Of a stretch of 64,000 nucleotides of DNA, positions 9,004 through 64,000 are shown piece by piece. The DNA is from Massalongia carnosa (lineage: Eukaryota). The notes beneath the pieces are model-generated. The model had not been told where the DNA came from and searched no databases. It saw only the letters and a list, made by a program, of their open reading frames with translations. The stretch is taken from assembly GCA_965645245.1 (NCBI GenBank), contig OZ287078.1, positions 1,984,001 to 2,048,000 on the forward strand, read 5' to 3'. How positions within the stretch are numbered: the stretch's first letter is position 1; every line of letters begins with the position of its first letter. The position numbers were made by a program, and so were the translations under genes.

Positions 9004-10241
9004 CTCCACATACTACCCATATGTTGCAACCTCTGGACGTGAGTGTTTTTGGGCCCTTATCACGGGAGTACAAAAAACAATTGGAGGTCGTCACCCGATT
9101 CAACGTCTGTTCAGTGGACAAGGTGGATTTTCTGAAGATCATTCAAAAAGCAAGAAAAGAAGCAATCAACACAAAAATCGTGCTGACTGAATGGAGAGCA
9201 ACCGGACTAGTACCATACAATCCGTCATCAGTTCTTCAAAAAGTCACTAATAAACAATCGGTGTTGCGAAAGACTGATAGCATCATCATCACCACTACCA
9301 CCACCACCACCACCACCAACACTACTACTATCACCACCACGAATATCACCTCCTCTCATCCTAACACTCCGAAAACCCTTCAAAACTCTCACGAAATTGA
9401 AAAGACACCTGCAAATATCGATCAAATAAATCAACTGATTCGTCGAATTCGAAATGATAAAGAATCAGACTCGACTCCCGTTTGAGCGCTAAATAAATTG
9501 ATAAAAGGCGCTAAATATGCCTTCGCAGACTCTACCTTGCTACGTATCACCAACAACGAGCTTCTTCAGGCCAATGTACGGCGCCATCATCGAGCCAATC
9601 GTAGCGGGGCTCACTATGGAGGAAAGGCTCGAGTTCTAAGCCTTGAAGACGTTCAACAAAGACAGCAATGGGCCAAAGATAAACAAAAGGTGAAAGACGA
9701 AAAAAAGAAGGCCGCTCAGCTAAAACGAGCTGAGCAGGACCTTATCAAAACTTTCAGGGAAATGTGTCGATTTGGACCTGATTTACTAGGACAAACGTCT
9801 ACTGCATCTTCGACGAAAAGTCCTCAGAAAAGTCCTCAGAAAGCACCTGATAGTTCACAAAGTAAGCCTATTTGTTCTTTTCAAAGACGATTACTACCTC
9901 CTCCCGTGCTTCAACCAATGACAGAAGAGGTAGAGGGGGTGGAGGAGGTGAAGGTGAGTGGGGGGGTAGAGGTAGAGGTGGAGGTGGTGGAGGAGGTGAA
10001 GAAGGTTCAAACTACCAGACGGGGTCGTATTGTACGTCAACCACGTAAAATGTGATTAAGTTACATTCAGACAAAATATCAATTTCACGTCTAATAGACA
10101 TTGAAGCCGAATTTGTATGTAAAACGGGTGAGAGGGAGGCTGTAGAAATTAAGCGAAATTTAGTTAGTCCCGTTGCCCAGTTTGTCCCGTTGCCCAGTTT
10201 GTCCCGTTGCCCAGTTTGTCCCGTTGCCCAGTGAGTTACGT
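9004..10241 (+). mobile_element. 5'-truncated Fot1/pogo-like DNA transposon (3' half plus TIR)
   Basis: LQPLDVSVFGPL DDE C-terminal part; near-identical to the element at 40672-43050; ends ...CAGTGAGTTACGT|TA with four 17-bp CCCGTTGCCCAGTTTGT repeats; stop at 9483-85. Confidence 0.9.
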
Positions 10242-10243
10242 TA

Positions 10244-12303: not shown

Positions 12304-12906
12304 CTTGATGCGCAGCGTTGAGAGGCTTGATTTCTTTGCCTTGGTTATCTAGTCAAGAATAGAAAGACTCTTTGTCTACAGTTGCTGTGCTTTAATTATG
12401 CTTTTCGGCCTAGAAGTAGTTATATCCAGGCACTGATTACCGCTTCGCTATTGGACCGGTAATTGGCGTGTGGTATCAAAAGGTAGTATAGTAGATAGAG
12501 GATAGAACGCTTGCTGTTGTTCTATATAGTGGGAATAGCTAGATTTATAGACAATGTACGGTATGCTAGTATTAGACTAGCGATACGTCTAGCCATTAGC
12601 GTGCGCCATACTCGTGCGGTAGAAGGTGAGTGCGGCTGAAATGAAGTAACCTGATTTGTACATTCTAACACTCCCACTCAGGCACTGAAATAGCACTCCC
12701 ACATGATAAAGAGAAATTCAATAACTCCCACATACTCCAGTATAATATCATGCTTCCCAGTGGATCACCTGCAGGTGAGTCAGTGTACTCCGCAGGCTAA
12801 TGCTGCTGGCGATGTACGAAAACACCCCCACAGGCTCAGCTGTGGGTGATACTTTTTTTTTTTTTTTGGGTTAAGGTCGAATTTTTTACGACAAAGGGCT
12901 TCTGGT

Positions 12907-15900
12907 TTATTCTAAGCCTAAAGCTTTTCGAAAGACAACAAATTTGTCCTTTGGTAGGGCCTTGGTTAGGCCGTCAGCTACCTGTTCTTCGGTAGGAACA
13001 TAGCGAAATTCCACTGATTTGTCTTCGATCTTCTCTCTTTGGTAGTGCCATTGGATGTCAATATGCTTGCTCCGCGCGTGTGCCTGGGGATTTTTGGCCA
13101 AAGCTATTGCTCCTTGATTGTCGCAGTGAATGATGATAGCATTTAGGGCGAAAGATGTAGGCAAGCAGGCAAGGGCTACAGAGGTGCTCTGGGTTTGGAG
13201 AGAGTGTATCCCAGGGACTTGAGGTGCTGAAAGTTGGTCGAGAAGACTAGACAGCCAGACGGCTTCCTTGGTGGCTTGAGTCTGACCCATGTACTCGGCT
13301 TCGCATGAAGATAGGGCTACGGTCGGTTGTCGTTTGGAAGACCAGCTAATAGCGCCACTACCCACATTAAACACGAAGCCTGAGGTAGACCTTCGGGTAT
13401 GATGATCTCCGGCCCAATCCGCGTCAGTGTAACCGTTCAAGGGTTGTAAGTAACCTTTGTATGTTAACTGCAACGGTAGAGTGCCCTTGATGTATCGAAA
13501 GATGCGTTTGACTGCCTTCCAGTGCGTATCGGTCGGGTTCGAGGCATAGCGGCTGACCACCGATACGGCGTAGGCTAAGTCAGGCCTAGTGCCTAGCATA
13601 GCATACATGAGAGAGCCCACCGCTGATTGGTAGCGGAGGCGAGAGTCATCTGTGGCCTGATGGCCCTCTGGTGCAGCCTCCAGTCGCCCATCCATCGGGG
13701 TAGCCACGGGGTTAGTGTCCCACATGCCATGGTCGCGTAGTACTTTTTCCAGATAGGCCTGCTGACCAAGGCGAAGAATCCTATTAGCCCGATCCCGAGT
13801 TATCGTCATGCCCAGGTAGTAATTGATAGGGCCTAAATCAACCATCGAGAACTCGTCACTCAGCAGTTTCTTGACACGTTGTATCTCGGAAGAAGAAGAG
13901 CCAGTGATGATTAAATCATCGACGTAAATGGCTACGATAACCCCTTCTTTAACGAAAACGCTAAGGTCGGCGTTGACTGGAACGAATTCATGAGACTTGA
14001 AAAAAGTAGTGATCGTTTCATACCAGATTCTAGACGACTGTTTCAGGCCATAAAGAGCTTTCTTCAACTTGCAAACTCTCGTTGACCCGTCATCCAGACC
14101 GGTTGGTTGCTCCACGTAGATTTCCTCGTCCACCCTTCCGTACAAGAAGGCTGTTTTTACGTCCATTTGGTGGATTTCCCAATCATTGGCTGCAGCGATA
14201 GCGAAGATGGCTTTATAGCTCATTGGCTTCACTACTGAAGCAAAAGTCTCATTGTAGTCAATGCCTTCACGTTGCTCAAAGCCTCTGACTACCCATCGAG
14301 CCTTGTAACGAAGAATCTCGCCAGCCGGGCCTCGTTTGATTTTATAAACCCATTTGCCTCGCAGGGCTTTGCGGTCCGGGGGCAGGGAGGTGAGGATCCA
14401 GGGATCATTTTCGTTGATAGAGTCAATTTCTTCCTGCATTGCCCTTCGCCAATCCTTTTCCTCCCGACTATCTACGGCCTGTTTATAGGTTTTAGGCTCG
14501 TATGGCTCCGGGTCATTGGCTCGAGCAAGAAGAGCCAAAAGAGCTAGCGGGTCAGGCGAGGGGGCGCGAAGTTTTGGATGCTTAGAGAGAATATCTGCCT
14601 GGGACCAAGGCTCAATGGGCAGTTGGTTTGCCAATGCCTCTTTTCCAGCGTTTGATGGGAGAGGTCCAGTGGGAATTGATTCTATGGATTCATGAGCGTC
14701 GACTAAGTCCGTATGAGGGGAGTCCGTATGATGGGTAATTTTTTGCTTTCTTGTGGGCGGTCCTGACTGTCCAACATGTAGGGCTCTTTTAGTTTGAGAG
14801 AATGATAAGGAAGGAGGAGTTGGGGGGTTGTTATCTATCCACTGAACATTGGAATAACGCATGACCGCGCCCCGTGGATTTATCATTCGATAGATGTGAT
14901 CGCCTTCGTATCCTACTAAAGTACATTTGGTGGCTCGTTCCTGAAATTTCTTCCATCCGGTGGAGGGCTTGCGATTTTGCGCATAGCCAGTCTGTCCTAT
15001 TATCCTTAGATGTCCTAGTTCTGGTGGGCTGCCGGTGTGAGACTCGTAGGGGGTGATGGAGCGTCCCGCAGTTGGTTGTCGATTTCTTAGGTAGTTGGCA
15101 GTGAGAACCATCTCAGCCCAATATTTGATGTCTAGTTTAGCGCCTTCTCGCATGGTGCTGGCTAACTTGTGAAGCGTTTGACCTAGGCGCTCGGCTGTCC
15201 CGTTCATGGGTGGATTTCCCGGTACGGTAGGTTCCCACTGAATGCCATGCTCGTTTCTGAAATTCTCGAAGTCCTTGGAGTCATACTCACCCCCACAGTC
15301 CGATCGCAAGCGCTTAATTCGTTTGTCCCCATATTCATTTTGCTTCTTGTAGTTTTTAAAAGCTTGAAGGACTCCGCTTTTGACGCGCAGTAAGGTGACG
15401 TGGGACCGTTTATCGAAATCGCAAAGAAAGGTCACCATATATTTGGCGCCGTTCAAGGCTTCTGGGAAAGGTCCTTGGACATCACTGTGAATTAAGTCCA
15501 GCGGGTGCTTGCCTGGTTGGATGGGGGCCCGGTGTGGTTCTACTTGGGACTGAGCGATGGCGCACGGAGGACAGGCGTCTTGGGGCGGGGGCTTGGTGAG
15601 GTCCATTCCTTTTGACATGCCAGCGAGCTTGAGAATGTTTTGATTTCCAAGATGGCCTAAACGAGCGTGCCACATTTTTATCGCCTCGCTATTAATTGCA
15701 GCAAGAGCGAGAGCGGCTTCAGAGACGTTCCACATATTCAGGATATACAGATTGTTGTCCTGGCGGCGAGCGATAATACCATAGTTCCCGATTTCAATTC
15801 CCTCTGGTACAATCTTCAGGGGACATCCATCTCGTTGTAATTGTCCTTGGGAGATGAGATTTAGGCCTCCGTCCGGAACGTATAACACATCGAAAAGAGG

Positions 15901-17031
15901 GAACTCCCGAAGACCCTCGTTACCGGCACACCGCAACATGACGTTACCTATTCCTTTGGGAATTAATACTCCTCCAATACCTTGAATTGGAGGGCAATCG
16001 GATGTCTTGAATGAGGTGAAGATGGAGCGATCGTGGGTAATATGTTGGCTAGTTCCAGAGTCACAGATCCAGAGCTTAGATATTTTGGTTATATCTGCGG
16101 TGGCCATGTAGGCGCAGAAGGCTCCTTTGGTTGAGTCATTGTTTCCGGTTGGCTTTTGGCTTTGACCTTGACTTTTGGAATTCCTACGACGCTTATTGGA
16201 CTTACGCTGTGAGTCTTGGTTAACGAGGTGTGGATATTTTTCACGACACTCGCTCTCTACGTGATAGTCTTTTCGGCAGTGGTTGCAGAACTTGATGGTC
16301 TTGGTGATGATTCGAGAATGGGCTGTTCCGGGTTGAGCTCCTGCTTGGGTTTGAGCGTTTGAAACAGCTGCCATTGCGATTACGGCCTTATCGCTGGACT
16401 TGCTTGGGTTGGTCACCGTGTTTTGGAAATGCTGCATAGCCTGACTTAACGTGTGCTTGGGTTCACCCATTTCATTGAAAGGATCATGATCCTGAGCGTA
16501 TCGTTCGAAATAGCTGTTGTATTCGAAGCCTAAATTGGTATGGAAGCGATAGATAAGCCAGTTTTCGTCCAGGCTTAGCTTGCTTGAGAAGGTGCGAAGC
16601 TTATTCACCGTGGCGCGAAATTGGGTAACGTAGTCTGCAGGGCTGCTGCAATCCGATAGGATAAGGTTGTCTAATTTTCTAAAGGTGTCATTGAGGAATC
16701 CCGAACCGCGAGGCTTATAGTTTGACTCAAGCAGGTCCCAGGCGACGGAAGCAGTAGTATGGTCTTCTATATCGGTGTAGGCATTTCCTTCACAAGCTAA
16801 TCGTAGAGCAGTGCAGGCCTTATCTTGGCCCTTTTTCCATTTGTTGAAGCCATCATTGGGAGCGTTTGGGCGTGGTGCAGCTTCGGTGTTATCACAATAG
16901 ATCCAAAGATCTATCATTTTGAGGCAATCTCGCATGGCTCGCTTCCATGCTGGATAACCCTCGTGGTCCACTAGCTTAGGGATCCTATCAATAGCGCTAT
17001 AGGACCCCGATCCAGAGATTTTTTCACTCAT
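12907..17031 (-). CDS. Copia Gag-Pol polyprotein (Gag/CCHC, protease, GAG-pre-integrase, integrase, RT, RNase H), 1374 aa
   Basis: CNHCRKDYHVESEC knuckle, WICDSGTSQH, WHARLGH, LRSDCGGEY, QMDVKTAFL, YVDD, YTDADWAG and ADGLTKAL in copia order. Confidence 0.97.
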   Translation of the reverse strand: MSEKISGSGSYSAIDRIPKLVDHEGYPAWKRAMRDCLKMIDLWIYCDNTEAAPRPNAPNDGFNKWKKGQDKACTALRLACEGNAYTDIEDHTTASVAWDLLESNYKPRGSGFLNDTFRKLDNLILSDCSSPADYVTQFRATVNKLRTFSSKLSLDENWLIYRFHTNLGFEYNSYFERYAQDHDPFNEMGEPKHTLSQAMQHFQNTVTNPSKSSDKAVIAMAAVSNAQTQAGAQPGTAHSRIITKTIKFCNHCRKDYHVESECREKYPHLVNQDSQRKSNKRRRNSKSQGQSQKPTGNNDSTKGAFCAYMATADITKISKLWICDSGTSQHITHDRSIFTSFKTSDCPPIQGIGGVLIPKGIGNVMLRCAGNEGLREFPLFDVLYVPDGGLNLISQGQLQRDGCPLKIVPEGIEIGNYGIIARRQDNNLYILNMWNVSEAALALAAINSEAIKMWHARLGHLGNQNILKLAGMSKGMDLTKPPPQDACPPCAIAQSQVEPHRAPIQPGKHPLDLIHSDVQGPFPEALNGAKYMVTFLCDFDKRSHVTLLRVKSGVLQAFKNYKKQNEYGDKRIKRLRSDCGGEYDSKDFENFRNEHGIQWEPTVPGNPPMNGTAERLGQTLHKLASTMREGAKLDIKYWAEMVLTANYLRNRQPTAGRSITPYESHTGSPPELGHLRIIGQTGYAQNRKPSTGWKKFQERATKCTLVGYEGDHIYRMINPRGAVMRYSNVQWIDNNPPTPPSLSFSQTKRALHVGQSGPPTRKQKITHHTDSPHTDLVDAHESIESIPTGPLPSNAGKEALANQLPIEPWSQADILSKHPKLRAPSPDPLALLALLARANDPEPYEPKTYKQAVDSREEKDWRRAMQEEIDSINENDPWILTSLPPDRKALRGKWVYKIKRGPAGEILRYKARWVVRGFEQREGIDYNETFASVVKPMSYKAIFAIAAANDWEIHQMDVKTAFLYGRVDEEIYVEQPTGLDDGSTRVCKLKKALYGLKQSSRIWYETITTFFKSHEFVPVNADLSVFVKEGVIVAIYVDDLIITGSSSSEIQRVKKLLSDEFSMVDLGPINYYLGMTITRDRANRILRLGQQAYLEKVLRDHGMWDTNPVATPMDGRLEAAPEGHQATDDSRLRYQSAVGSLMYAMLGTRPDLAYAVSVVSRYASNPTDTHWKAVKRIFRYIKGTLPLQLTYKGYLQPLNGYTDADWAGDHHTRRSTSGFVFNVGSGAISWSSKRQPTVALSSCEAEYMGQTQATKEAVWLSSLLDQLSAPQVPGIHSLQTQSTSVALACLPTSFALNAIIIHCDNQGAIALAKNPQAHARSKHIDIQWHYQREKIEDKSVEFRYVPTEEQVADGLTKALPKDKFVVFRKALGLE

Positions 17032-17634
17032 GATGGAAAGGGTTTATTGGAAGAGCTTAATGGATTGTCCTTGTTAACGGACTGGCTTGAACTGGTGTTT
17101 GGTTTTACCGGATTCCGACGGAGTGCTATTATAAGTGCTTGGTGACTTGGTTCTGGCTCTTAGATCGAAAGGATCACAGTCGCTGGGCGGTTCTAGGTCC
17201 GATTTTGATGTGGACTGACCGGGAGTGACTGGAGGCTCAGGGATGATGGTACAAAGCAATCCAATTTTGATTGATCTGAGTTATCCTCTAAGAGAAAGCA
17301 ACGATTTCCGCACTAGCCGCCTGTAATGTATGTTGTGAATCCCGTTCAAGCCTTGTTGCCGGCCTATTATTTGGTTGAGGCTCTGAGAGTCATTGGATCT
17401 CGGCAAGAGTGCCACGTAGGAATGGGGCAGTGATTGATATAATAGATCTAAACGCAGAAGCAGATGCAGGTGCAAAGATAGATTTGAGGCGTTTAGTTGT
17501 GCCTTTGGGGTTGATAAATCGAGAGCGTTTTTTGTTGCTCGAAGCCATAATCCTGCAGTCTTATAACTGATACGCAGATGCTGACTATGAATAGAGGGCA
17601 AAATCGATTACAGGGAGATTTGGTTTCATCCCAA

Positions 17635-17959
17635 TGGATGTCACATTCCCGGTTTTTTGTTGGGAACGTAGATCATCCGAGACATCTGGATGTCACATTC
17701 CCGGTTTTTTGTTGGGAATGTAGATCATCCGAGACATCGAAGTGAATGTCACATTTCCGGTTTTTTATTGGAAATGTAGATCATCCGAGACACCTGGATG
17801 TCACATTTCCGATTTTTTGTTGGGAATGTAGATCATCCGAGACATCAAAGTGAAGTGGATGTCACATTCCCGGTTTTTTATTGGGAACGTAGATCATCCG
17901 AGACATCTGGATGTCACATTCCCGGTTTTTTGTGGGGAATGTAGATCATCCGAGACATC
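17635..17959. repeat. Six ~52-bp tandem units in the copia 5' leader
   Basis: TGGATGTCACATTCCCGGTTTTTTGTTGGGAATGTAGATCATCCGAGACATC x6, arranged as three pairs. Confidence 0.92.
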
Positions 17960-18780
17960 GAAACGAAGTGCAAGGAGGTGCCTGTTAAAATATTTGTTAG
18001 CGTTCGTTTAGTAAGGGGCAAAGAAGAAGCCGGGCGCCCGATAGTAGTGCTTAGCCATCTCAAACACTGCCGACTGTTTCATATGTGTCGATTTGTGTCG
18101 GATTTTTTTGTAGGAGATTATTCGCGACGGTAATTGTTTGCGACGGTAAGGAGGCTTGTGTTAGGGTAGGTAAAGTAAGACAAGCAAACACATGTAAAGA
18201 GGCGCCCTGCGGCCGGGCTCATAACCTATCAAAAGGTAGTATAGTAGATAGAGGATAGAACGCTTGCTGTTGTTCTATATAGTGGGAATAGCTAGATTTA
18301 TAGACAATGTACGGTATGCTAGTATTAGACTAGCGATACGTCTAGCCATTAGCGTGCGCCATACTCGTGCGGTAGAAGGTGAGTGCGGCTGAAATGAAGT
18401 AACCTGATTTGTACATTCTAACATGTGGATCTGAACAGAGCAGAATGGAGATGACGGGAAGTGGATTTTCCACAGTGGAAGTATTCTTTGGGTCTACGGG
18501 ATCCTACAACTTACAGGATTGGTATCTTACATGCGTAAGAGAGGGACAAGGATCTGACAAAGATTCTGATTAAATATCATCTCCCTCGTAACTGATGATC
18601 TACAAGATATATTTCTCCCTAGGAAATGAAAATTTGCAGCGTGGATCGGGGAAAGGGTTATGATCAATGGTTTCTATAAGGATTTTGTCACCAATAAGAA
18701 CAAGATTGAATTCGGGGGAATTTCTTGTCCGGGATTCGCAAACAGAAATGAGATTATTCAGCCAGTCTGCACGCAATGGA

Positions 18781-18928: not shown

Positions 18929-19210
18929 CTAATGACTAGACGTAGTTGACTCATCTTGCGATTGGCATTGCCCGGCACATTGTAATAATGAATATCTGAC
19001 TTGAAATCATGACCAACAGCTGCCCACTAGTTCGTGTCAATCTCGTTATATTGCTACTAAGTATGTTTGGGCTATTGCTCACAGCCCCCGGCCTCGAGAG
19101 GGGGACTCGATAAGGGCCTTGCTGTCTACTAATGTAAGACCCTCTCGCAGGCCTTGGGCTGTGAACAGACTCCCAATCCCCAACATGGAACGACCCGCTT
19201 GCGGTGTTGT

Positions 19211-20247
19211 TCAGGACCTAGTGACTGGATTGTGAGGTTCCGTGGGTAATGTTTGAAGGCGTTTTGAGGCGTTAAGAAGGTAAGTGGGGTGGGTTTGTAT
19301 GTAAAGCTTGTATGCGTCTGACTTCCATCTTCCTAGCATCTGAATCTCGTCTTCGGTGAGTCCTGCCCGTCGCGCTGTTGTTGCCGCACCTCTTCTGAAC
19401 GAGTGGCCAGAGAAATTTCCTATATAGCCCAAGTTCCTTAAGGTGGATTTCATCGCTGTTGTAATGTAGTCTCGAGTGAAGGACTGACCGTTTTTAAAGA
19501 GTGGTGCGGCCGGAGAACTTGGGAATCGCCTATATAAATTTGTAAGAGAAGCTAGTGCACAAGCAACATCGTTGGTAGCCGCAATTGTCAGTGTTATGCC
19601 TCGGCGAAAGGGATCGGTTTTGGAGACTGGTAGAGAGAGCTGTAGGTGATCTGCTTCGAACCTAATAGATTTTCTGGTGAGGTGCCATTGATCAAAGCTT
19701 GGGTCTAGTACATCTTGCGTTGTGTAAGTAAATTCTCCGGCTCGTAAGAAGCCTGCAAACGCTAAGCAGTACGCCGCATGTAAATTTGCGCCTTTCTCTT
19801 TCGTTTGATCAAGACGACTTAGCAATTTGATTAAGATCTCTCTAGTAATTGGTAACCTTTCACGTTTCTCGGCTTCACCGTTCTTTCGCTTTATGCCAGT
19901 AAGGATGCGATCTAACACCGGGTGATGAAATACGTCGAGATTACCGAGGCCCATATCTATCTGGCATGATCTTATGCCCGTCAAGTAGCTCTTAATAGTT
20001 TTTGGTTGCAGGCGTCGTTCACCCAACGCTGCGATCCACGAAGACAGCGTCCGGATGTTGGCTGGAAATGGTGGCGCGTTGAGGTTTACCCTACAGTAAA
20101 GAACGTATCCCTTTCTTGCCGTTGTGTATAAAGATCTTGTCTTAGTGGCCAGGCCCCACCAGAGGTATCGTGCTGCGATTTCGTCTAGAGGTACCTCACT
20201 GTACCAAGATGGGGGTGGATCGCGTCCTATATTGCTGAGGGTAGAGC
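19211..20247 (-). CDS. Tyrosine recombinase (probable second exon of a spliced GagN-YR protein)
   Basis: Catalytic motifs FLRAGEFT, SKTDPF, SGHSFRRG, GRWKS, AYKLY. The frame stays open upstream through RDPPPSWYSEVPLDEIAARYLWWGLATKTR with no ATG. Confidence 0.92.
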
Positions 20248-21843
20248 CTGAAACTGAGGGATTTTGTCAGCCAGTTTCTTCAAAAGTCCTCTAGACAAGA
20301 GATCAGCAATATAATTTTCTTTGGATGATATCCATCGCGCTTCTATCTGGATATCATGTAATGCAGCTAGCATTGTAATTGCCCGCAGGGCATGCATTGC
20401 TTGGCCTCGTATAGAGGTTTTATTCACTCCTTTCGTGACAGCGTAGCTATCACAATAGAGGATTAAATGACTACCCTTGCATATAGGTAGCCACTTTTTC
20501 ATAGCTTGAAGAATTGCTGTCATTTCTTTGACGTTGATATGCTTTGCCCTAAGGCGCGTAGTAAAGCGTGTGCTAAAAGCCTGCCGGGCTGCTTGTATAT
20601 TATGCAAATTTTGATCCTCGCTGAGGATAAAGCCGCCCATACCATATGAGCCGGACGCATCTGTCCATATTCTCATAGTATGTCTAGTACGGTTGAGCAG
20701 ATGTATGCCATTCCATTTAGGTAGGAAATGATGCCACCATAGAAGATCCGCCCTCATGTCCTTGTTAAGATGGATTAGTTTAGAGGTTACGCTTGCCGTA
20801 GCATTGAAAAGACGGCGTAGAAAGGCTCTTCCTGGTTTTACCACTCTGGCTGCAAAGCATAAGAATCCTAGAAGAGAGTCGAGTTCCTTCCTGGGTATGG
20901 CTTTTTTATTCAAAGCTGCCGATACTAGGGTCTTTGCTTTTAGTAACTTTTCGGAAGGCAAGCGTGCTTCCATGAGCGCGGTATCGATTTCAATGCCGAG
21001 GAAATCGCAAGTCGTTCCAGTTCTGTTCTTTTCGAGCTTGATTTTCATGCCAAGATCTTTACAAATGTTGTGGAAAACTTGATCAAACTTTTCAGCATCT
21101 GGTCCGGTGCTGACTATTATTAAAAAATCATCCAAGTAATGAATAGCGTCTTTCCAACCACAGTTGTACAATATCCAGTTGATACCCTTCGCGAACAGAT
21201 CAAAAAGGAACGGCGACGTTCTCAGCCCAAAGGGTAAGTATTTATCCATCCAAAAGGAATCCTGCCACTTGAAACCTAGTAACCACCAATCGCTTTTTGC
21301 TACTGGTATGTGGCGAAAAGCGTCCGCAAAGTCTCTTTTAATAAGAATACACCCTGGCCCGCGTTGCTCAATCAACCTAATGGCTTCGTCGAAGCTGGTA
21401 TATTCCAGGGAGCCCCAGTCTTCCGGTATGTGGTCGTTGACTGAGCTACTCTCCGGATACGATAGATGATGGATTCGCCGCCAACCACCGTTAGCCTTTG
21501 GTACAAGGCCTAATGGGGAACATATAAAGCAAGAAGGAATGTTGTTGACTTTCTCCAACCGATTACTAGCTATTTGTTCTTCGAGGTCATTGGTAAGAAC
21601 TTCCGGTGCCTCATTTGCAGAGGCAAGATTATCGCTAATAATGAGTTGATGTGGTCCTGTATAACCAACTTTGGCACCGTAGGTGATGATATCGATAATT
21701 GTTTGTGTGTAAGTGCGATCCGGGTGATTGGCCAAATGTTTCTCCCAGCCTTCTTTCTTCAATGGGCCCGGTGGGATCTTTGTTAGATTGTCCGTCAAGG
21801 TGTATGGAAAGGACTCCGCGATGGATAAGAATGGGGCGGTTAG
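20227..21843 (-). CDS. Reverse transcriptase-RNase H, in frame with gag after a single TGA
   Basis: CSPLGLVPK, WRRIHHLS, DFADAFRH, LPFGLRTSP, HYLDDF, FLGIEID, WTDAS, INVKEM, LYCDS, ADLLSR. Confidence 0.93.
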   Translation of the reverse strand, partial: LTAPFLSIAESFPYTLTDNLTKIPPGPLKKEGWEKHLANHPDRTYTQTIIDIITYGAKVGYTGPHQLIISDNLASANEAPEVLTNDLEEQIASNRLEKVNNIPSCFICSPLGLVPKANGGWRRIHHLSYPESSSVNDHIPEDWGSLEYTSFDEAIRLIEQRGPGCILIKRDFADAFRHIPVAKSDWWLLGFKWQDSFWMDKYLPFGLRTSPFLFDLFAKGINWILYNCGWKDAIHYLDDFLIIVSTGPDAEKFDQVFHNICKDLGMKIKLEKNRTGTTCDFLGIEIDTALMEARLPSEKLLKAKTLVSAALNKKAIPRKELDSLLGFLCFAARVVKPGRAFLRRLFNATASVTSKLIHLNKDMRADLLWWHHFLPKWNGIHLLNRTRHTMRIWTDASGSYGMGGFILSEDQNLHNIQAARQAFSTRFTTRLRAKHINVKEMTAILQAMKKWLPICKGSHLILYCDSYAVTKGVNKTSIRGQAMHALRAITMLAALHDIQIEARWISSKENYIADLLSRGLLKKLADKIPQFQALPSAI

Positions 21844-22998
21844 TCATTGCCTTGATGGGAGAGGCATCGAATTTGGGTTAGAGGGTTGATTTTTTCCATT
21901 TGTACAGTCCATCGCCCGATGTTGCTTTCCACATTTCTCACACACATGTTGGAATCTACAATATACGGGACAGTCTTTGCCATAGTTGTATTTCTTACAG
22001 ATAATCTTTTCGCCTGAGGTTTTGAAAGCCGTAGAATTATCGTCCGGTTTTGCAAAGTAAGCGGACGGTTTCCGCACAAGATGCCTTTCCAAGGAATGGT
22101 CCATTTCTTTCCATCCATCCGGGTTGTCAATCCCGCGAAAGGCTCGAGATTTGTGGAAATTCAAATGAAAGATGCGAACCGAGTCCCAGGTGTAGAAGGC
22201 GTATAATGATAGAAGATGGTCCTGATAAGCCATGAAGGCTCTCATCAGGTTTATCTGGAGACCGGGGTGTGCAAAGTGTAGTAGTATCATCCAATATACC
22301 CCGAGACATCGTATCAAATGAACTATCCCTTTGATATCTTTTAAGGAGCCATCTTCTTCTCTCGTGGCGATTTCCAGACCTTCTCCGAGTTTGACGTATC
22401 TAGAGTTGGTTTGAACTCCGTCGATGTCGGTACATAGCTTGGTAATGTTGATTGGGTCAAACGTATTCTCGGAGATTTGCTTTATCCATATGGGCTTGAT
22501 AGTGGGATATTCGTTCATAAGAGAAACAAAACGAGGATCCATACCTTCTGTATACAATGAGTTTGGTCGATGCGGTGGAAATGATGTCGGAAATAATAGG
22601 GAAGGCTGTTGAGCTGAGGCTACTGGCCCAGGGACCACGTCTCGGGCACGTGCTTGTTGGGTTTCGATATCCCGCCTAAGACTTACTCTTTCTCTTTCCT
22701 CGGCTTCCCTGCGGGACATTTCGCGTTGTGCTCTAAGTTCAATAATGTCATCAGGGGTGCGAGAACGGGTTTCCGGTATAACAGGCCCTTGTGAGGAGGA
22801 ATTAAACGCTGAAGATGGAAGAGGAGAAGGTTGAGGATGGCTTTGAAGGGTTGCCGTGCTGTCTTGTGAGTCGGGTACTTCGACGTCTGGGTTGGAGTTG
22901 GCTAGATTTGCCCTAGCTCTAGTTCTAGTACGGGCTAGAGTGCTGCCTTGTGTGCGGGAGGTAGGCTTGGTGATTCTGTTGGAGATGCGGGTGGCCAT
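21844..22998 (-). CDS. Gag-like protein with C-terminal Cys/His zinc fingers (384 aa from ATG 22998)
   Basis: MATRISNR...; CKKYNYGKDCPVYCRFQHVCEKCGKQHRAMDC; homologous to ORF1 of the copies at 29349 and ~60395. Confidence 0.85.
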   Translation of the reverse strand: MATRISNRITKPTSRTQGSTLARTRTRARANLANSNPDVEVPDSQDSTATLQSHPQPSPLPSSAFNSSSQGPVIPETRSRTPDDIIELRAQREMSRREAEERERVSLRRDIETQQARARDVVPGPVASAQQPSLLFPTSFPPHRPNSLYTEGMDPRFVSLMNEYPTIKPIWIKQISENTFDPINITKLCTDIDGVQTNSRYVKLGEGLEIATREEDGSLKDIKGIVHLIRCLGVYWMILLHFAHPGLQINLMRAFMAYQDHLLSLYAFYTWDSVRIFHLNFHKSRAFRGIDNPDGWKEMDHSLERHLVRKPSAYFAKPDDNSTAFKTSGEKIICKKYNYGKDCPVYCRFQHVCEKCGKQHRAMDCTNGKNQPSNPNSMPLPSRQ

Positions 22999-24164
22999 TT
23001 TTGGAGGAGAGGGATTTGAATAGAGTAAATTTAAGTGTAGTTGTTGTATAAATTTGAATTGGGTGAAAAGAAAACGTTGCAAACAGTGCTATCAAAATGC
23101 TATGCTTTTTGATTGTCTTGAGATGTGAGATGATGAGGGATACCGTCTGGGACCTCCTCTTTATATATCTTCTTCCTATTCTCCTTGTCCTACTCTACCA
23201 TCCCAGTATGCCCCATCAACGCGGCCCATAGCAAGGCATACACAAATCCGAAACCTAACTGTCGTCCGAAGGATCGATGCGGTGCTAAGATCTCTATGCC
23301 GTGCTGAGACATCCTTATGGTGCTGAGACATCTATGCCGTCCGAGAGATCCGTGCGGTGCCGAAATCAAAGCGGGAGCTGTCTCGATTAACGACGCACTA
23401 GCTCTCAGCATAGCCGAACTAGGCAATGATGCCGTTTCACATCTCTAGAATCTGGTTCTTCTGCTTGCTGTATACAGTCCTGACAATATCTTTAGCCCGG
23501 CTGGCGAATGATGGACAGTTTACCTTGAGGACCCCATCCGAAATGCACCTCATCACTGAATCGTACGTTATGCCAGTCAGACTTTTCAGGATATCTTTTC
23601 AACATAACTTTGGCCCAATCAAAGCGACGACGAGCTGTTTTCTCATTGACCCAGCCCTTTCTGCATGCGACGCATTTGTGATAGTCCATCGTTCCCATAG
23701 CTATTTGTATGATTCGTCCCGAGCACTCAAGTCCCACCTCATAGCCCAACTCTGCCCAGGTGAGAGCACGCGCCTCAAATCCCTCCTCCTCTATGATGCG
23801 CTCCATTCCGCAAATTTTTTGCGGAGTAACAATAGCCTTTCGCCCTCGCGTTTCAGGAAGATCAGGCTTATTGTGATGTCTTCGCGAGCTCTCCTGATTT
23901 AAAGCTCTCCAACCGGCATGATGACTCATATTAAACGTACGAAAAACGTCCTTTTTGAAGTAGAGAATGCCCATGCGATCGCAGAATTCAACGGCTCCTT
24001 GAATTTTAGCTTTTGTAGGAGTAGGATAGTGCATTCTAGATTCAGAAGAGTTAGGTTCAGGTGTGTTGGGTCGTTCCATGATGCTGGTTGTTGGTGAAAA
24101 GGGGGGATTTTTTGATGGGGTGAAATTTTTGGGTGTCGCTTTTTTTTTCTGCGAGCGCGAGGGC

Positions 24165-28977: not shown

Positions 28978-31900
28978 GTAATTCGGCTAAGGCGAAAGGT
29001 AATGCCGGGACCGAGTGGAGGCAGGCCGCGAAACAGCCGACGAAGGCTGAAGGCCGTGGATAGCCGAAGGACCGAGTGGAGGCAGGCCGCGAACAGCCAA
29101 CGAAGGCCGAAGGACAAAGGAGGATGATGTCCAAAATAGTTGGACAAGCAAGGGAGAGAAAGGGCATAAATAGGTGGCCTTTTGGCAATCTTCTCCTCAT
29201 CATCACCATTGATTCGGAGTTCAGCACCAAAAGGTCTTTTGAAAGTCTTTCCCGAATTAAAAACATCTGTCAATCACCCACCCTCAACCCCATCATTCTA
29301 AATCACCTCCATTTCTCATCCTATATTACCTCCCACACTGAGCCCATCATGCCTTCCCATCGCCCTCAAAGAATCACCAAGCCTTCCGCCCGCTCCGGAA
29401 ACACCTCCGGGCCTGGTCAACGTCTCACTCGTTCCACCCGACCCCCTAGGGGAGGGGCCATAGTTCCAGAAACAAAGCCTCCTCCGAACACCCAAGGTTC
29501 GGAAGGAACACTTCGGGGCGATGTGATAGACGTCCACCGAACACCGGAACCAACCCCGGACCTGCTGTTGGACCTCAGGGCTCAGCAGGAGGCCACGGCG
29601 ACAGCCCTCAGGCAGGAGGAGACCCGTCACCTTCAAAAAAAAATTACCGACAACTTGGCGGCCATTCAACGTATAAGGGAGGGAAACACAGTCCCCGAGT
29701 ATAGGCATGAGGTACACACTCCCCACCCGAACCAGCTACTACCCGCTGAAACTGAAGGTACGCATCTATGTCTCCTTCCTCTAATTATCGAGTACCCCGC
29801 CATAAACAGCATTTATTTCCGACGAATTCTGAGCAACAAATTCGACCCCATAAATATTTCCAAGCTCTGCACCGATGTAGTCTTGATCAAACCAACTGTC
29901 AAACGAGTGAACCTGGCCAAAGGATACGAATTAATACAGGAAGAAGACGACGCGTCACCAGGAGACATCAAGGGACTACCCCACCTGATTCGCTGCCTCA
30001 TGGTGTATTGGCAGGTCTTGCTTCATTTGGCACTATCTCGAATAAAAGACAGTCTTTGTAGTGCCTTTCAAATCTATCAGGACCGCTTGTTGTTACATTA
30101 CACCATCTACACCAGGGAGTCAGTACGGGTGTTTCATATAATCTTTCACAGGGGTCGAGTGTACCAGGGGTGAACGACCCGGCCGGATGGAGGAGAATCG
30201 ACACCACCATCGAAAACATGTACCTTACTCGACGGACACCTAACTTGTCCATGACGGGAGGTACCACCAAACAGTACCCGGGATCAATCCCGATAGGCGG
30301 CTCCACTGAATCAAAGCCCATGTCCTGCAATCGATACAACGCAGGGCGGGAATACAAGGACTGCAGGTACCTTCACGTCTGCAGTCTCTGTTTCGGCCAT
30401 CACACGAAAAAAAACTGCCCTAAGGCACATATCAGCAACCCAAATTTCATGTCAACGGGTAGACGAGATTGACTAGCCGGCCCATTTGATCATATCGCCG
30501 AATGGTTCCCCTATCCGCTGATAGATAAATCAGTAATCGTACCCTCAGGGCCTCTAAGAAAAGAAGGCTGGGAACTTCACGTCATGGGTCATCCGGACAA
30601 AACTTAAAAACAGACCATTCACGATATAACCGTGTACGGGGCCAAAATTGGTTACACCGGCCCAGATCAGTTCATTCTAAGCAACAACCTGGCCTCGGCC
30701 AACGTGGCCCCAGAAAATCTGACCATGGACGTAGAGGACCAGAGGGCCAAGAACCGATTGATCGAGGTACCCACCCTACCAGCCAGATATATGTGCTCCC
30801 CCTTAGGCCTGGTCCCCAAACCAAACGGAGGATGGCGCGGTATTCATCACCTCTCCTACCCCGAGGGTAATTCGGTGAACGACTTCATTCCCGAAGAATG
30901 GGGCGCTCTGGTGTTGAGAATTGAGCCGAGATGTCTGCTTATTAATAAGAGCACTAACCGAATGCGGATCAAGCACTAAGGGTTATTTCGGCCGTGGCAA
31001 CACATCACTAATCATTCGAGATGTCATCCATCTGCCAGCTAAGGGAGGCAAAACGGAATATATTGTTAGATGGTGAGGCTACCATTGGTTAGATGGTCAG
31101 GCTACCATCAATATAGGCATCCATCGTGAGTCACACGGGTGTCTACCAGGCACCTATGGAGGTGCCTAACAGGCAGCTATAGGAAGCCTACAGCATTACT
31201 GCTGTGTGACTGCTATAAAAGCAGGTAGATAGCCCACATAGATAATAACCCTCAATGAAATGTATGCTTCTTATTTGCCCTACTTCCGTTTCATGATCAA
31301 TAGCCTGGTGTTTCAACATCTGGAATATATCACTTTCGACGAAGCCCTCGCCGGTGTCAGAAGATTGGGCAAAGACTGCGTACTGATCAAACGAGATCTA
31401 GCCGATGCCTTTCGCCACGTTCCCGTGGCGCAAAGCGATTGGTGGTTGTTGGGTTTTTGTTGAAACGGGGTTTACTGGATGGAACGCTTTCTTCCATTCG
31501 GCCTCAGGACGTCTCCCTTCTTGTTTGAATTATTCGCGAAAGGTCTGAACTGGATGATGATTAATAAAACAAATGGCGAAGTTATTCACTACCTGGACGA
31601 TTTTCTCGGAATCGTTCGCGCTATTCCCGATGCGGCATCCTTTGATCGGAACTTTGCAGAAATTTGTCAGCCTAAAAATCAACGAAAAGAAAAATAAACA
31701 AGGCACGGTAGTCGAATTCCTGGGCATCGAGCTGGACACACACCTCATGCAGGCACGACTACCGGCCGAAAAGCTTCAGAAAGCTAAGGATGTCGTCCAA
31801 ACAACATTGAATAAATCCACTATAACCAGAAACGAGCTAGACACTCTGCTGGGATTTCTGTGCTTTGCAGCCAAAGTGGTGGTGCCGGGAAGAACCTTTC

Positions 31901-33694
31901 TCCGACGCCTTTTCAACTGCAAAATTGGGCCCGCGCGCCCATTTATTCATATCAATTCTCACATAAAAGCTGATCTTTTATGGTGGCATCATTTCCTTCC
32001 ATTATGGAACGGCATACACATTATTAGCCCTTCGAGACCCTTGCTCCGTCTCTGGACGGATGCCAGTGGGGACTTCGGAATCGGGGCATACATACTTCAA
32101 GGTGGTCAAACCACACACACATTGCCCGCTGAGCAAGTGGTTTCTGAACGTTATACCACCAGGCTCAGAGCCAAACATATCAATGAGAAGGAGATGACAG
32201 CAATTCTGCACGCCATACGGCGGTGGCTCCCCATGTGCAAGGGAGCTCATCTTCTTCTTTATTGCGACAGCTTTGCTGTAATGTCCGGGGTCAAAAAGAC
32301 CTCCATTCGGGGCGGGGCCATGCATCCCCTCCGGAATATCGCCATGATGGCGGCAATATATGACATTGAGATTGAACCACACTGGCTGTCTACCAAAGAA
32401 AATTTCTTAGCAGATTAGTTGTCCCGAGAACTATTTGGAAAAATCGCTGACAATTACCCCAACCTGCAGGGCATTTCATCGAACAAATAACGGCGTCACT
32501 CGCCCGCGACCCCAGAGACTTGGTATAACGAGGTTCCGCTGGATCGCCGAGCAGCCAGATGTTTATGGTGGGGCATAGCAATTAGGACTCGAGGGCTATA
32601 CGATGCAGCTCGGAAAAGCTACACGACTCACTGTCAATTAGCAACCAATTTCCCTCCCTTTCCAGCGTCAATTCGAAGTCTTTCGGCATGGATAGCCGCC
32701 CTGGGTCAGCGAGGGCTCTGCCCGAAAACCATCAAAAACTATTTAGCTGGAGTACGATCGAGCCATTTGGACATGGGCCTAGGGGACCTGGAGGTCTTTC
32801 ACCATCCAGTCCTAGACAGAATAATAGCGGGAATAAAACGAATGCACGGTGAACCAGAAAGACGAGAAAGGCTACCAATCACACGCAACGTTTTGATAAA
32901 ATTGCTACGGAAACTATACAATACCAACGAAGTCCAGGCAACACTTCATGCAGCATACAGCATCGCATTTGCCGCCTTCTTAAGAGCGGGAGAATTTACC
33001 TACAAACAGGGAGAAATGCAAGACTCCAGCTTCGATTCATGGCATTTAACTAGGAAATCGGTGGATCTACAAGCGGATCGAATAATTCTTTCCCTACCAT
33101 CATCCAAGACGGACCCTTTTCGAAGGGGTAGAAAAATTTATATCGCAGCAACAAACGACGAAGCATGCTCGATCACCTCCATTCGGAACTTGTTTACCCG
33201 ATTACCGAAACCAGCATCGTCCCCATTGTTCCAAGTTCAGGACAAGGCCTTCACTCGTGAATATTTAGTGCAGGCCCTACGGAGTGGCCTCCGGGCAATT
33301 GGCGTCCGAGGGAATTACTCGGGTCATTCGTTTCGACGGGGTGCAGCAACAACGGCTAAGAACTCGGGCTTGCTAGAGGAAGATATTCAGACCTTGGGCC
33401 GATGGAAATCAGACTCGTATCAATTGTACATTCAAACACACCCGGACCAATTAATAGCGACCTCCCTTCGTTTTCAACGACCCCCCGCCACGTTCCGAAC
33501 AGCACCACCGTAGGTGGGCCATTCCCTGCTTGGGGTTGGGAGTTTTTTCCCCTCACTGCTGCCAAAACAAAGCCATATAGGAGGGGCCTTCAGCAAAACT
33601 GAGCGCCAGCAGGGCAGCAGCGAGGGGAGAGTTGCTCAAACATAGATAGAAATTATGTATATGTTCAGCTGACACGATGGAGCCCGCGAATTAC
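28978..33694 (+). mobile_element. Complete but decayed YR retrotransposon, family B
   Basis: Gag from ATG 29349, RT-RH ~30473-32490, YR to 33513; termini GTAATTCG...CGAATTAC; inserted between copia TAAA and CCAGAAG. Confidence 0.92.
30912..31318 (+). mobile_element. Solo LTR (407 bp) inside the YR element RT
   Basis: TGTTGA...TCAACA termini; TSD TCTGG; RT frame WGAL|EYITFD rejoins. Confidence 0.92.
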
Positions 33695-47731: not shown

Positions 47732-48659
47732 GATGATTGATTTTTGATGATGATCAGATAAGGCGATAAGCAGTTTATTAATCTTTTTGAAATTTAAGGT
47801 GATACGGGGACTCAGAGCAAAATGGCAAATACGGGAATAATGGTTTATAGAATAAGAAATAATGCTTTATTTATAAAAGTCGAAATTCTACTCTGAAAAC
47901 CCCTAATAAGACAAGCAGCAGGAATTCAGTTTAATAAGCTCTTGCTTCGAAACTGATCGAGTCAGAAAAGGCGTAATGCTTACGGTGGAACTGGCGTAAT
48001 TTCCTCTCTCCGAAACTTGTTCATCCAATTTCCACGACCTTCTTCTAGCCTCTTATTTTATTCAAAATGCGGCTCTCTTATAAAAGAGTATGTCATCATC
48101 CGGCTCCAATCAGATATTAATTAGCTAGACATAAACTGCATACCAGCTTTACATTCAGTCTAGTTTAGATTAAGTTCTCAACACATCTATACGTTTTCAG
48201 CGCCCTTTATCCTCGCCCGGTTGAGCCTTAGTCGAAGCAGCATCAGTCAGGCTAGCATCGATCGGAACGGCACTGCTAGTAGGCCATTCAGTTTTGGGAT
48301 TTGGGAGTTTCTCTGTCACTCGCACTAGGGGCTAGCATTTCAGCGAGCAAGCTGGGGCCCTCTGAGCCGAGCGTTCCTGATCCCCTAGGGCGCCAGCGTG
48401 GTGCAAATAGGAGGGAGCAGCCAAACTCTAGATAGACAAGAAATCGAGGGTTTTAACGGGTTAGACGATAATTATCAAATTTGAATCTTTCGTTTATCAG
48501 CGGGTGTGTGGATTTTTTTGTTCACCGCGTATCACTATATCACTAGATCTGTAGTTAGCTCGTCACATCGGTGCTATGTTTCTACCCTATTGCACAAGCG
48601 GCAAGTAACATTTGCATCTCTTTATCATGACCTTTCGCTGATGCCGTCTACAATGTATA

Positions 48660-60005: not shown

Positions 60006-60104
60006 TATATACTTTCGCCAGTTCGTGGAAACTACATAGAGATATCCTGGGACTCCCTAACGTGATATTCGAATTGTTTCGAAAAAAAGAAAAAAACTAT
60101 AAAA

Positions 60105-63100
60105 GTAATTCGGCTCGGGCGAAAGGTAATGCCGGGACCGAGTGGAGGCAGGCCGCGGATAGCCGACGAAGGCCGAAGGTTGGATGTTGGACGGGAAGGG
60201 GAGAAAAAAGCATAAATAGGTGGCCTTTTGGCACTCTTCTCCTCATCATTACCATTGATTCGGAGTTCAGCACCAAAAGGTCTTTTGAAAGCCTTTCCCG
60301 AATTAAAAACATCTATCAATTACTCACCCCCAATCGCATCATTCCAAATCACCTTCACCTCTCATTCTATATTACCCTCCACACTGAGCCCATCATGCCT
60401 TTCCATCGCCCTCAAAGAACCATCAAGCCCTTCATCCACTTCGAAAACACCTCCAGGCCCGGTCAACGTTTCACTCGTTCCACCCGATCCCCTAGAAGAG
60501 GGGTCATAGTTTCAGAAACACAGCCTCCTTCGAACACTCAAGGTTCGGAGGGAACACTTCGGGACGATGTGGTAGACGTTCATCGAACATCGGAATCAAT
60601 CCCGGATCTGCTGTTGGATCTCCGGGCTCAGCAGGAGGCCACGGCGACAGTCCTCAGGCAGGAGGAGACCCGTCACCTTCAAAAAACAAATTGCCGACAA
60701 CTTGGCAGCCATTCAGCGCATAAGGGAGGGAAACACAGTCCCCGACGGAGACATCAAGGGACTACCCCACCTGATTCGCTGCCTCGGGGTGTATTGGCAG
60801 GTCTTGCTTCATTTGGCATCATCCGGAATAAAAGACAGTCTTTGTAGGGCCGTTCAAATCTATCAGGACCGCTTGTTGTTACATTACACCACCTACACCT
60901 GAGAGTCAGTAGGAATGTTTCATATAATCTTTCCACAGGGGTCGAGTGTACCAGGGAGTGAACGATCCGGCCGGATGGAGGAGAATCGACACCATCATCG
61001 AAAACATGTATCTTACTCGACGGACACCTAACCTGTTCATGACGGGAGGTATCACCAAACAGCGTCCGGATCACTCCCGGTAGGCGGCTCCACTGAATCA
61101 AAGCCCATGTCCTGCAATAGATACAACGCAGGGCGGGAATACAAGGACTGCAGGTATCCTCACGTCTGCAATCTCTGTTTCGGCCATCACACGAAAAACA
61201 ACTTCCTCAAGGCACATATTAGCAACCCAAATTTCATGTCAACGGGTAGACGAGATTGACTAGCCGGCACATTTTATCATGTCGCCGAAGGGTTCCCCTA
61301 TCCGCTGATAGATAAATCAGCAATCGTACTTTCAGGGCCTCTAAGAAAAGAAGGCTGGGAACTTCACCTCATGGGTCATCCGAAAAAAAAAATTACAAAC
61401 AGACCATTTACGATATAATCATGTACGGGGCCAAAATTGATTACACCGGCCCAGATCAGTTCATTCTAAGCAACAACCTGGCCTCGGCCAACGCGGCCCC
61501 AGAAATGCTGACCATGGACGTAGAGGACCAGAGGGCCAGGAACCGATTGATCGAGGTACCCACCCTACCAGCCAGATATATATGCTCCCCCTTATGCCTG
61601 ATCCTCAAAGTACACGGAGGATGGCGCCGTATTCATCACCTCTCCCATCCCGAGGGTAATTCGGTGAACGACTTCATTCCCGAAGAATGGGGCGCTCTGG
61701 AATATTTTCTTTCGACGAAGCCCTCGCCGGCGTCAGAAGAATGGGCAAGGACTGCCTACTGATCAAACGAGATCCAGCCGATGCCTTTCGCCACGTTCCA
61801 GTGGCGCAAAGCGATTGGTGGTTGCTGAGTTTTTGTTGAAACGGGGTTTACTGGATGGAACGCTTTCTTCCATTCGGCCTCAGGAGGTCTCCCTTCTTGT
61901 TTGACATATTCGCGAAAGGCCTGAACTGGATGATGATTAATTGTTCAGACCTCGGCCTAAAATCAACGATAAGAAAAATAAACAAGGCACGGTAGTCGAA
62001 TTCCTGGGCATCGAGCTGGATACACACCTCATGCAGGCACGACTACCGGCCGAAAAGCTTCAGAAAGCTAAGGATCTTGTCCAAACAACATTGAATAAAT
62101 CCACGATAACCAGAAACAAGCTAGACACTCTTGCTGGGATTTGTGGGCTTTGCAGCCAAAATGGTGGTGCCGGAAATAACTTTTCTCCGACGCCTTTTCA
62201 ACTGCAAAATCGGGCCCGCGCGCCCATTAATGAGTAACAATTCTCACATAAAAGCTGATCTTTTATGGTGGCATCATTTCCTTCCATTATGGAACGGCAT
62301 ACACATTATTAGCCCTTCGAGACCCCTGCTCCGTCTCTGGACGGATGCCAGTGGGGACTTCGTGATCGGGGCATAAATATTTCAAGGTGGTCAGACCACA
62401 CACATTGCCCGCTGAGCAAGTGGTTTCTGAACGTTATACCACCCCTTTGCAGCCAAAGTAGTGGTGCCCGAGAGAACCTTTCTTCGGCGCCTTTTCAACT
62501 GCAAAATCGGGCCCGCGCGCCCATTTATTCATGTCGATTCCCACATAAAAGCTGATCTTTTATGGTGGCATCACTTCCTTCCATTATGGAACGGCATACG
62601 CATCATCAGCCCTTCGAGGCCCCTGCTCCGTCTCTGGACGGATGCCAGCGGGGACTTCGGAATCAGGGCATACATACTCTTAGGTGGTCAGACCACACAC
62701 ACACTGCCCGCTGAGCAAGTAATATCTGAACGATACACGACTAGGCTCAGAGCCAAACATATCAATGAGAAGGAGATGACAGCGATCCTGCACGCCATAC
62801 GGCGGTGGCTCCCCCTGTGCAAGAGAGCCCATCTTCTTCTCTATTGCGACAGCTTCGCTGTAATGTCCGGGGTCAAAAAGACCTCCATGCGAGGAGGGGC
62901 CATGCACCCTCTTCGGAATATCGCCATGATGGCGGCTGTAAATGACATTGAAATCGAGCCACACTGGCTGTCGACCAAAGAAAACTTCTTAGCAGATTGG
63001 TTGTCCCCAGTATTATTTGGGAAAATCGCTGACAATTACCCCAAACTGCAGGGCATTTCATCAGACAAATAACGGCGACACACGCCCGCGACCCTCCAGA

Positions 63101-64000
63101 AACATGGTACAATGAGGTCCCGCTGGATCGTCGGGCAGCCAGATATCTATGGTGGGGCATAGCAATTAGGACTCGAGGACTATACGATGCAGCCCGAAAA
63201 AGCTACACGACCCACTGTCAGCTGGCGACGAATTTTTCCCCTTTCCAGCAACAATTCGAAGTCTTTCGGCGTGGATAGCCGCTCTAGGCCAACGGGGACT
63301 CCGTCCCAAAACTATCAAAAACTATCTAGCTGGGGTGCGATCAAGTCAATTGGACATGGGCCTAGGGGACCTGGAGGTTTCCATCAGCCAGTCCTAGACA
63401 GGATAATAGCAGGAATAAAACGGATGCACGGTGAACCCGAAAAACGAGAAAGACTACCAATCACACGCGACGTTCTGATAAAATTGCTACGAAAATTAGA
63501 CACTATTAACGAGGTCCAAGCAACACTCCATGCGGCATATAGCATCGCATTCGCTGCCTTCTTAAGAGCGGGAGAATTTACTTAAAAACAAGGAGACATG
63601 CAAGACCCCAGCTTCGATTCATGAATTTAACCAGGAAATCCGTGGACCTACGAGAAGATCGAATGATTCTCCCCTTACCATCATCGAAAACGGACCCTTT
63701 TCGAAGAGGTAGAAAAATTTACATCGCAGCAACAAACGACGAAGCATGCTCGGTCGCCTCCACCCGGAACTTGTTTACCCGGTTCCCGAAATCAGCATCG
63801 TCCCCGCTGCTCCAGGTTCAAAACAAGGCCTTCACCCGGGATTATTTGATGCAGGCTCTGCAAAACAGTCTCCGGGCGATTGGAGTTCGAGGTAATTACT
63901 CGGGTCATTCGTTTCGACGTGGGGAAGCAACAACGGCCAAGGACTTGGGCTTGCTGGAAGAAGACATTTAAACCTTGGGCCGATGGAAATCGGACTCGTA
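60105..64000 (+). mobile_element. Second decayed family-B YR retrotransposon, running off the window end
   Basis: Starts GTAATTCGGCT; colinear with 28978-33694; deletions in gag and RT; ~300-bp duplication in RNase H; YR with stops. Confidence 0.92.

Follow-up and report, generated by a model that had tools for sequence, protein, structure and literature searches.

Ngaro retrotransposons are defined, in the passages on their structure in four accounts (PMC3783388, PMC9210276, PMC4157794, PMC13465315), by the order A1-ORFs-B1-A2-B2. A passage of one of these called them nearly absent from Ascomycota in 2013 (PMC3783388), and a complete element was later reported, in the section concerned, from the ascomycete Zymoseptoria (PMC4502367). 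For DIRS-1 of Dictyostelium, the available excerpt of PMC7192593 states that the primer is unknown and proposes a 3' hairpin for this role. In the searched portions of the literature, we found no model test of priming or of repeat rebuilding for Ngaro elements. In the PPT/PBS and strong-stop DNA scheme of LTR retrotransposons, primer sites fix the repeat edges, the PPT and PBS bounding the LTRs. In hepadnaviruses and the Mauriceville retroplasmid, a stem-bulge-stem (epsilon) or a CC(A) foot (tRNA-like end) directs the start of reverse transcription. The comparisons drawn below with these three systems concern how they work only.

The stretch of DNA analysed here (64,000 nt, "the window") is a transposon-rich part of a fungal-type genome of 52 Mb in 25 contigs. 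On its minus strand lies a 4396-nt element of a family that we call A (19027..23422), in the short form A1-ORFs-B. Repeat A1 (23067..23422, minus strand, 356 nt) starts with CTAGTTCG and contains a TATA-like box near 23160-23169, with CTCATCA about 32 nt further on, which may form a promoter; TATA-like and CTCATC motifs are both present in only four of nine A repeats. Three intact frames follow on the same strand: ORF1 (21844..23088), which is gag-like by its position and a C-terminal Cys/His cluster and has no Pfam match; ORF2 (20227..21843), encoding reverse transcriptase (RT) and RNase H (Pfam RVT_1, 2.9e-14; RT_RNaseH, 1.4e-7); and ORF3 (19211..20266), overlapping ORF2 and encoding a tyrosine recombinase (YR) whose Phage_integrase score (4.6e-4) is below cut-off, despite which the catalytic residues R...HSFR...Y are invariant. 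ORF2 ends after RNase H, and a Pfam scan of ORF2 and ORF3 gave no methyltransferase domain. The nearest Atlas clusters of the family A RT are eukaryotic RT clusters, and the viral contigs searched held no relative of the element.

The YR of family A has at least 123 matches in its own genome (122 of 325 candidates were scored), including at least 46 full-length copies at 99-100% identity, as in a young intact family. In 26 of the 30 best genomic copies the layout is A1-ORFs-B1-A2-spacer-B2, where A2 is a copy of the first 356 bases of the element, B2 a second copy of its last 148 bases, and the spacer between them is unique. The window copy is among the four of these 30 without A2-spacer-B2. 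All three copies in the window (A, B and C) lack it, which is why no repeats are visible there. By its gene set, its split direct repeats and the absence of a methyltransferase, the element is a Ngaro retrotransposon, and as a type it is ordinary and of a known class. It shares with the published accounts, as far as their relevant passages go, gag, RT/RNase H, an overlapping YR and the order A1-ORFs-B1-A2-B2, and its B, at 148 nt, differs little in length from that of Xenopus DIRS-53_XT, given as 152 bp in the corresponding passage (PMC9210276); unlike amphibian Ngaro it lacks a hydrolase ORF. DIRS-1 has the same enzymes but carries inverted repeats with ICR and a methyltransferase, whereas family A has direct repeats; a DIRS1-like assignment was ruled out on these grounds, the only inverted sequences being 7-8 bp at the ends.

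A reading of the window from sequence alone had placed, at 19035..19200, a structure-conserved, sequence-divergent element with a presumed role in RT priming, 3' processing or self-cleavage. The element is there, with its bounds misplaced: it is repeat B of the Ngaro retrotransposon plus a leader, cut short at the right end, which runs to 19027, while the repeat proper starts at 19174. Repeat B (19027..19174, minus strand, 148 nt) has its edge at GG (19173-19172); comparison with families B and E shows that the G at 19174 matches the spacer by chance. The leader GGGTCGTTCCATGTTGGGGATT (19175..19198, minus strand; about 22 nt) lies outside the repeat and precedes B1 only, not B2; its TT lengthens the base of the long hairpin (19065..19176, minus strand), which consists of UUGGG / CCCAA at the base, an internal loop and a family-specific stem of about 25-30 bp. 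An A-rich tail (19035..19064, minus strand), a possible 3'-end signal, and the right end CGAACTAG (19027..19034, minus strand), the reverse complement of the left end, complete the repeat. The motif TGACACGA (19032-19039, minus strand) had been pointed out near the end of families A and B and is found in both, but in A it overlaps the terminal recombination arm and it occurs in only 2 of 13 families (14 sequences, B twice); as a universal motif it was dropped.

At least six Ngaro families (A to F) are held by the genome, A, B and C in the window. A short-form element of family B (28978..33694, plus strand) with ends GTAATTCG / CGAATTAC sits in a copia copy; its repeat A ends at 29241, and its leader, hairpin and repeat B lie at 33514..33694 (plus strand), with the edge GG at 33539-33540. 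A second family B copy (60100..64000, plus strand) is cut by the window end before its hairpin. The family C element (about 44000-48546) is split by a DDE_Tnp_4 insertion (about 45035-47903) and has its leader and decayed hairpin at 48279..48452 (plus strand). As had been noticed, each hairpin stretch lies after a YR gene, and the anchors TTGGGAGT ... G(C/T)CAAAC occur together three times in the window (19176, minus strand; 33536 and 48301, plus strand), whereas 200 simulated windows gave a mean of 0.03 and a maximum of 1; as these very sequences had supplied the pattern, the simulation excludes only chance co-occurrence.

The stems described for A and B are present in the sequence, and both hairpins fold better than shuffles (19039-19198, minus strand, z -3.14; 33514-33667, plus strand, z -2.73). 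The family A hairpin exceeds every other 136-nt window of its element in stability, with -62.2 kcal/mol against -48.2 for the best elsewhere (213 windows). For relic C, the proposed frame holds as far as a decayed YR element with anchors at 48301 is concerned, but the window copy folds no better than shuffles (z +1.51; +1.05 in a second run); most of the 19 family C copies folded, which are less decayed, are about 6 kcal/mol more stable than it and keep the outer stem. Single-sequence folds reach z <= -2 in only 8 of 14 sequences. Scanning metagenomes with a five-family YR alignment yielded 79 loci, eight of which (L151, L152, L153, L157, L158, L160, L166, L190) have the same frame of TTGGG-nn-TTGGGAGT, long stem and GCCCAAAC, and two (L161, L177) have it in part.

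The 5' arms of the stems are 29% identical on average across 11 families. Because the stems are thus unalignable by sequence, we chose an arm-swap test, in which the 5' arm of each family is paired with the 3' arm of every family. With 20-nt arms from 11 families, own arms gave -23.7 kcal/mol and foreign arms -11.9, a difference reached in 0 of 200,000 permutations; the own arm ranked first in seven families, second in three and fourth in one, and 15- and 26-nt arms left the result unchanged. A first run had comprised 13 families including the decayed window C, L155, whose arms overlap, and L174, with the own arm first in eight; in the 11-family set, L155 and L174 are left out and C is replaced by L092. 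The control shifted into the YR gene was null in 10 of 10 shifts (p 0.11-0.97). These statistics show that the long stem is kept by selection on pairing, and they bear out the idea of a cis element conserved in structure and divergent in sequence. The covariation check first suggested for it, based on alignment, came out empty: RNAalifold on a MAFFT alignment of the 11 hairpins returned 0 pairs because such stems cannot be aligned by sequence, and we therefore built no covariance model and claim no per-pair covariation for the long stem. The sense strand folds better in 8 of the 11 families and G-U pairs number 42 versus 31, figures compatible with either RNA or single-stranded DNA as the folded form.

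Repeat B begins on a fixed motif. Both B copies, and with them complete repeats, are found in 20 of the 79 metagenome loci, and these loci together with families A, B, D, E and F form 16 groups, with 32-67% identity (median 39%) between their YR fragments. In 15 of the 16 groups B begins at GG, either directly or with a single base shared by chance in front; in the exception, L227/L229, it begins GA. GG makes up 4-8% of the dinucleotides in the loci examined, giving a binomial of 2e-13, or 1e-10 with A, B, D and E counted as one; both values overstate independence because kin share the GG edge by descent. That descent holds the edge on a GG motif is the point of interest, whatever the binomial. 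The count leaves out a deletion variant (L191/L192, where B2 starts inside B, also at GG), an indel at the edge (L156) and two members of the same family as L155 (L164/L165); in L186 and L195 the automatic edge walk overshot, the last mismatch still lying just before GG. In B1 of families A, D and F, the C-run closing the long hairpin is the predicted partner of the first G. In distant groups the predicted partners of GG vary, and the identification of GG with the hairpin foot is therefore shown for closer relatives only. As a separate observation, a distant Ngaro clade (L170, L171, L175, L179, L181, L201, L205, L206, L211, L219, L223) has, just past the GG edge, a short stem and the purine-rich motif AGAG...CAGGGAC, with no Rfam match in those scanned.

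The inner edge of repeat A2 is marked by C-runs. At the very base where A2 ceases to match A1, a CCCNCCCWCC-like tract opens the spacer: the strict form CC(C/T)NCCC(A/T)CC stands at offset 0 in 7 of 10 loci, at -1 in one and at +4 in one, and family F has a variant. The tract is absent after A1. A 25-nt window at the A2 edge falls within the top 0.05-3.7% of C-run richness of each locus, and in further loci lacking A1 the strict tract lies between B1 and B2 in six of nine. On the minus strand it becomes four G-runs, with a G4Hunter-type score of 1.08-1.96 in 10 of 10 loci; a quadruplex is predicted from these, many tracts having one run of only two G. Part of the tract is also predicted to pair within a second hairpin: the spacers of A, B, D and E have at their end a stem-bulge-stem structure in which the five opening bases of B2 are paired (11 pairs, two of them with two-sided change, in four sequences only). 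The edge motifs were first noticed by eye, and both edge rules were fixed in writing before the solo units of families B and E were retrieved (18 of 30 and 12 of 30 loci in spacer context). Both rules held, the spacer opening with the tract at the A edge and B beginning GGAGT; B and E being close kin of A and D, this fresh test stays within the clade. As a further candidate we considered that the C-tract might pair with the G-rich leader of B1, which is possible in A and D but not general, because L193, L195, L209 and L211 keep the tract and have no leader. As far as the searched literature goes, the GG edge with its hairpin, the spacer hairpin and the C-tract are undescribed cis-signals: the open literature we searched held no conserved B fold, GG edge, C-tract or spacer hairpin for Ngaro, and the founding papers of Goodwin, Poulter and Butler may hold such remarks.

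On these sequence patterns, we hold with modest confidence that the hairpin and the edge motifs serve the starting or stopping of DNA synthesis in reverse transcription, so that of the roles suggested earlier the tie to reverse transcription is probably right. A polymerase start or stop would hold an edge on one motif over distances as large as these, and B1-A2 can be read as one unit, equivalent to an LTR and bounded by GG on the left and the C-tract on the right. A full transcript would run from the A1 promoter through the ORFs, B1, A2 and the spacer into B2. Minus-strand DNA would start in B2, at the hairpin, where the small spacer hairpin, by pairing with the first B2 bases, could free the CCCAA that forms the 3' side of the long hairpin's foot. 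Starting at GG, the foot of B1, the plus strand would copy B1-A2 as far as the C-tract at the head of the spacer and stop there; on the cDNA this tract presents four G-runs and possibly a quadruplex. The B1-A2 piece would correspond to LTR strong-stop DNA and pair with the minus strand at its still incomplete A1 end, after which both ends would be completed to a circle with two B|A junctions, and the recombinase would integrate this circle at the B|A junction.

A stricter version is tentative, and we think it unlikely to hold as a whole: both strands would start without tRNA or polypurine tract, RT beginning GG on CCC-AA at the foot of one and the same hairpin, once on the RNA of B2 and once, in mirror image, on the cDNA of B1, and the conserved quadruplex would be a programmed stop that excises the B1-A2 transfer piece. 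In contrast to the PPT of LTR elements, the B1 leader is pyrimidine-ended and not a polypurine tract. Within the close group only five bases past the B edge are shared, fewer than a tRNA site usually requires. As to sequence context, the GG of B2 has a T before it in just 6 of the 16 groups (B, E, F, L155, L211 and L223). The CCCAA switch implied by the main scheme, closed in B1 and open in B2, is predicted in A and F at three of three window sizes and in D at one of three, and was not seen in L155, L156 and L169. We know of no eukaryotic retroelement with such a primer-free, quadruplex-stop replication scheme, and if true it would be undescribed for any of them. For YR priming and the rebuilding of split repeats the signals offer a handle, in young intact families where they are mutable, and the two edge motifs give a rule for annotating Ngaro ends and solos.

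Among the other explanations, the strongest assigns the hairpin to packaging, dimerisation or Gag/RT binding, or to 3'-end control with read-through at B1 and a stop at B2, and the C-tract to a host poly(C)-binding protein, the edges matching as selection keeps a functional module alike. It is a possible account, if not a probable one: long stems of free sequence with a variable interior (78-212 nt) suit recognition by shape, A-rich tracts follow the hairpin in most close relatives, and the predicted folds of B1 and B2 differ in A and F, yet on its own it leaves unexplained the base-exact GG and first-C edges across families 32-67% identical. We consider it quite improbable that the RNA is instead cut just before GG, by the RNase H of the element, a host nuclease or an undescribed ribozyme, with RT running off the end, or is trimmed to the CCC foot and self-primes on the paired GG. 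The fixed GG edge and the predicted pairing of its first G with C at the foot in A, D and F would suit such an end. The ribozyme variant, which takes up the self-cleavage proposed by the sequence-only reading, is very improbable: the Rfam check suggested for it gave no match to any family, ribozymes included, on A, B and C in the window (Rfam 15, up to E 5) or on the element in 20 loci (up to E 3), and RNA catalysis is disfavoured by the conserved bases, which are restricted to the stem foot, leaving no conserved interior, and are not the same in distant groups.

The element ends are inverted arms of 7-8 bp, which makes the B|A junction palindromic in A, B and D; this palindrome is the putative recombinase site. 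In 32 of 32 distinct family A insertions a target duplication is absent, and the window copy sits, likewise without one, in a Tc1-like transposase whose frame resumes beyond it without gain or loss. In all 32 the crossover falls on the B|A junction, some 40 nt past the hairpin foot, and not inside the stem, and we accordingly give very little credence to the hairpin acting in single-stranded cDNA as a recombinase substrate, like an integron attC site, even if both strands fold and DIRS-1 cDNA is described as single-stranded in the pertinent excerpt (PMC7192593). The left flank of the 32 insertions has A at -5 in 21, C/T at -4 in 28 and T at -3 in 26; this bias A(C/T)T (L031-L050, L131-L143) mimics the right end of the element, while the right flank is nearly unbiased, a one-sided homology at the crossover. 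Further observations concern the B1|A2 junction: L020 and L021 carry, ahead of A2, a second copy of the final 21 bases of B1, and the longer end of family B past TGACACGA may have arisen by a like duplication; in L116 (family F) the inverted arms flank a core of 8-9 nt, whereas in A, B and D they abut. Permuted integrants (A-spacer-B before A1) were looked for and none was found in 20 family A loci.

Complete repeats are unevenly distributed among the families. Family D has one complete and one interrupted set among 11 loci, and family F, with at least 65 YR copies at >=98% identity, has complete repeats in none of five copies of a first set and in 9 of 20 of a later one; its standing as an active family without repeats was dropped on these further copies. 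Families B and E are represented, among the copies examined, by short forms and solos only, and among 21 matches of family C neither B2 nor a solo was found, judged by position. In family A, A2-spacer-B2 lacks an adjoining B1 in 14 of 40 scored matches, all 13 solos examined are clean 543-nt A-spacer-B units, and the spacer motif occurs 85 times in its own genome (its reversed control, 0 times). Least credible of all is that the hairpin replaces terminal repeats, as had been proposed and as the three window copies without visible repeats and the lack of a complete copy of B, C or E among those examined might suggest, or that the likeness reflects neutral common descent: A, D, F and 20 of the 79 metagenome loci have complete repeats, and solos prove A-spacer-B for B and E, which refutes the former for A, B, D, E and F, where the element is the B unit of ordinary split direct repeats, and the arm-swap result excludes neutrality.

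Under the reverse-transcription reading, two deletion products would arise by loss between repeats or junctions: A-ORFs-B, the short form present in the window, and A-spacer-B, the solo. Solos of the latter build, whose spacer measures about 30 nt, are likewise described, in the relevant passages, for SIRE of Trypanosoma cruzi VIPER (PMC6681497) and as solo AB repeats of Cafeteria Ngaro (PMC8547959); those concern other hosts and other sequences, and here the reciprocal short form is also common. In families B, D and E solo units appear commoner than complete elements, and they may be able to move on their own from the A promoter.

The window holds several other features. At 423-494 (minus strand) there is a weak match to an HDV-like ribozyme (RF02682, 31.4 bits against a cut-off of 44, E 0.063), adjoined by a 59-nt tandem repeat of about 3.5 copies (138-341). 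An intact copia element with identical 197-nt LTRs lies at 12474-18423; the second copia copy (25395-28976) is the one split by family B. A Plavaka element occupies 2409-5561, the DDE_Tnp_4 element inside family C 46475-47866, and 17-nt tandem repeats (10145-10243, 42935-43052) mark the ends of two pogo/Fot1-like DDE elements. Amid these transposons, an NB-ARC-like/TPR gene of fungal NLR type with about 11 repeats of 126 nt (54750-57569, plus strand) has its nearest eukaryotic clusters mostly in Ascomycota.
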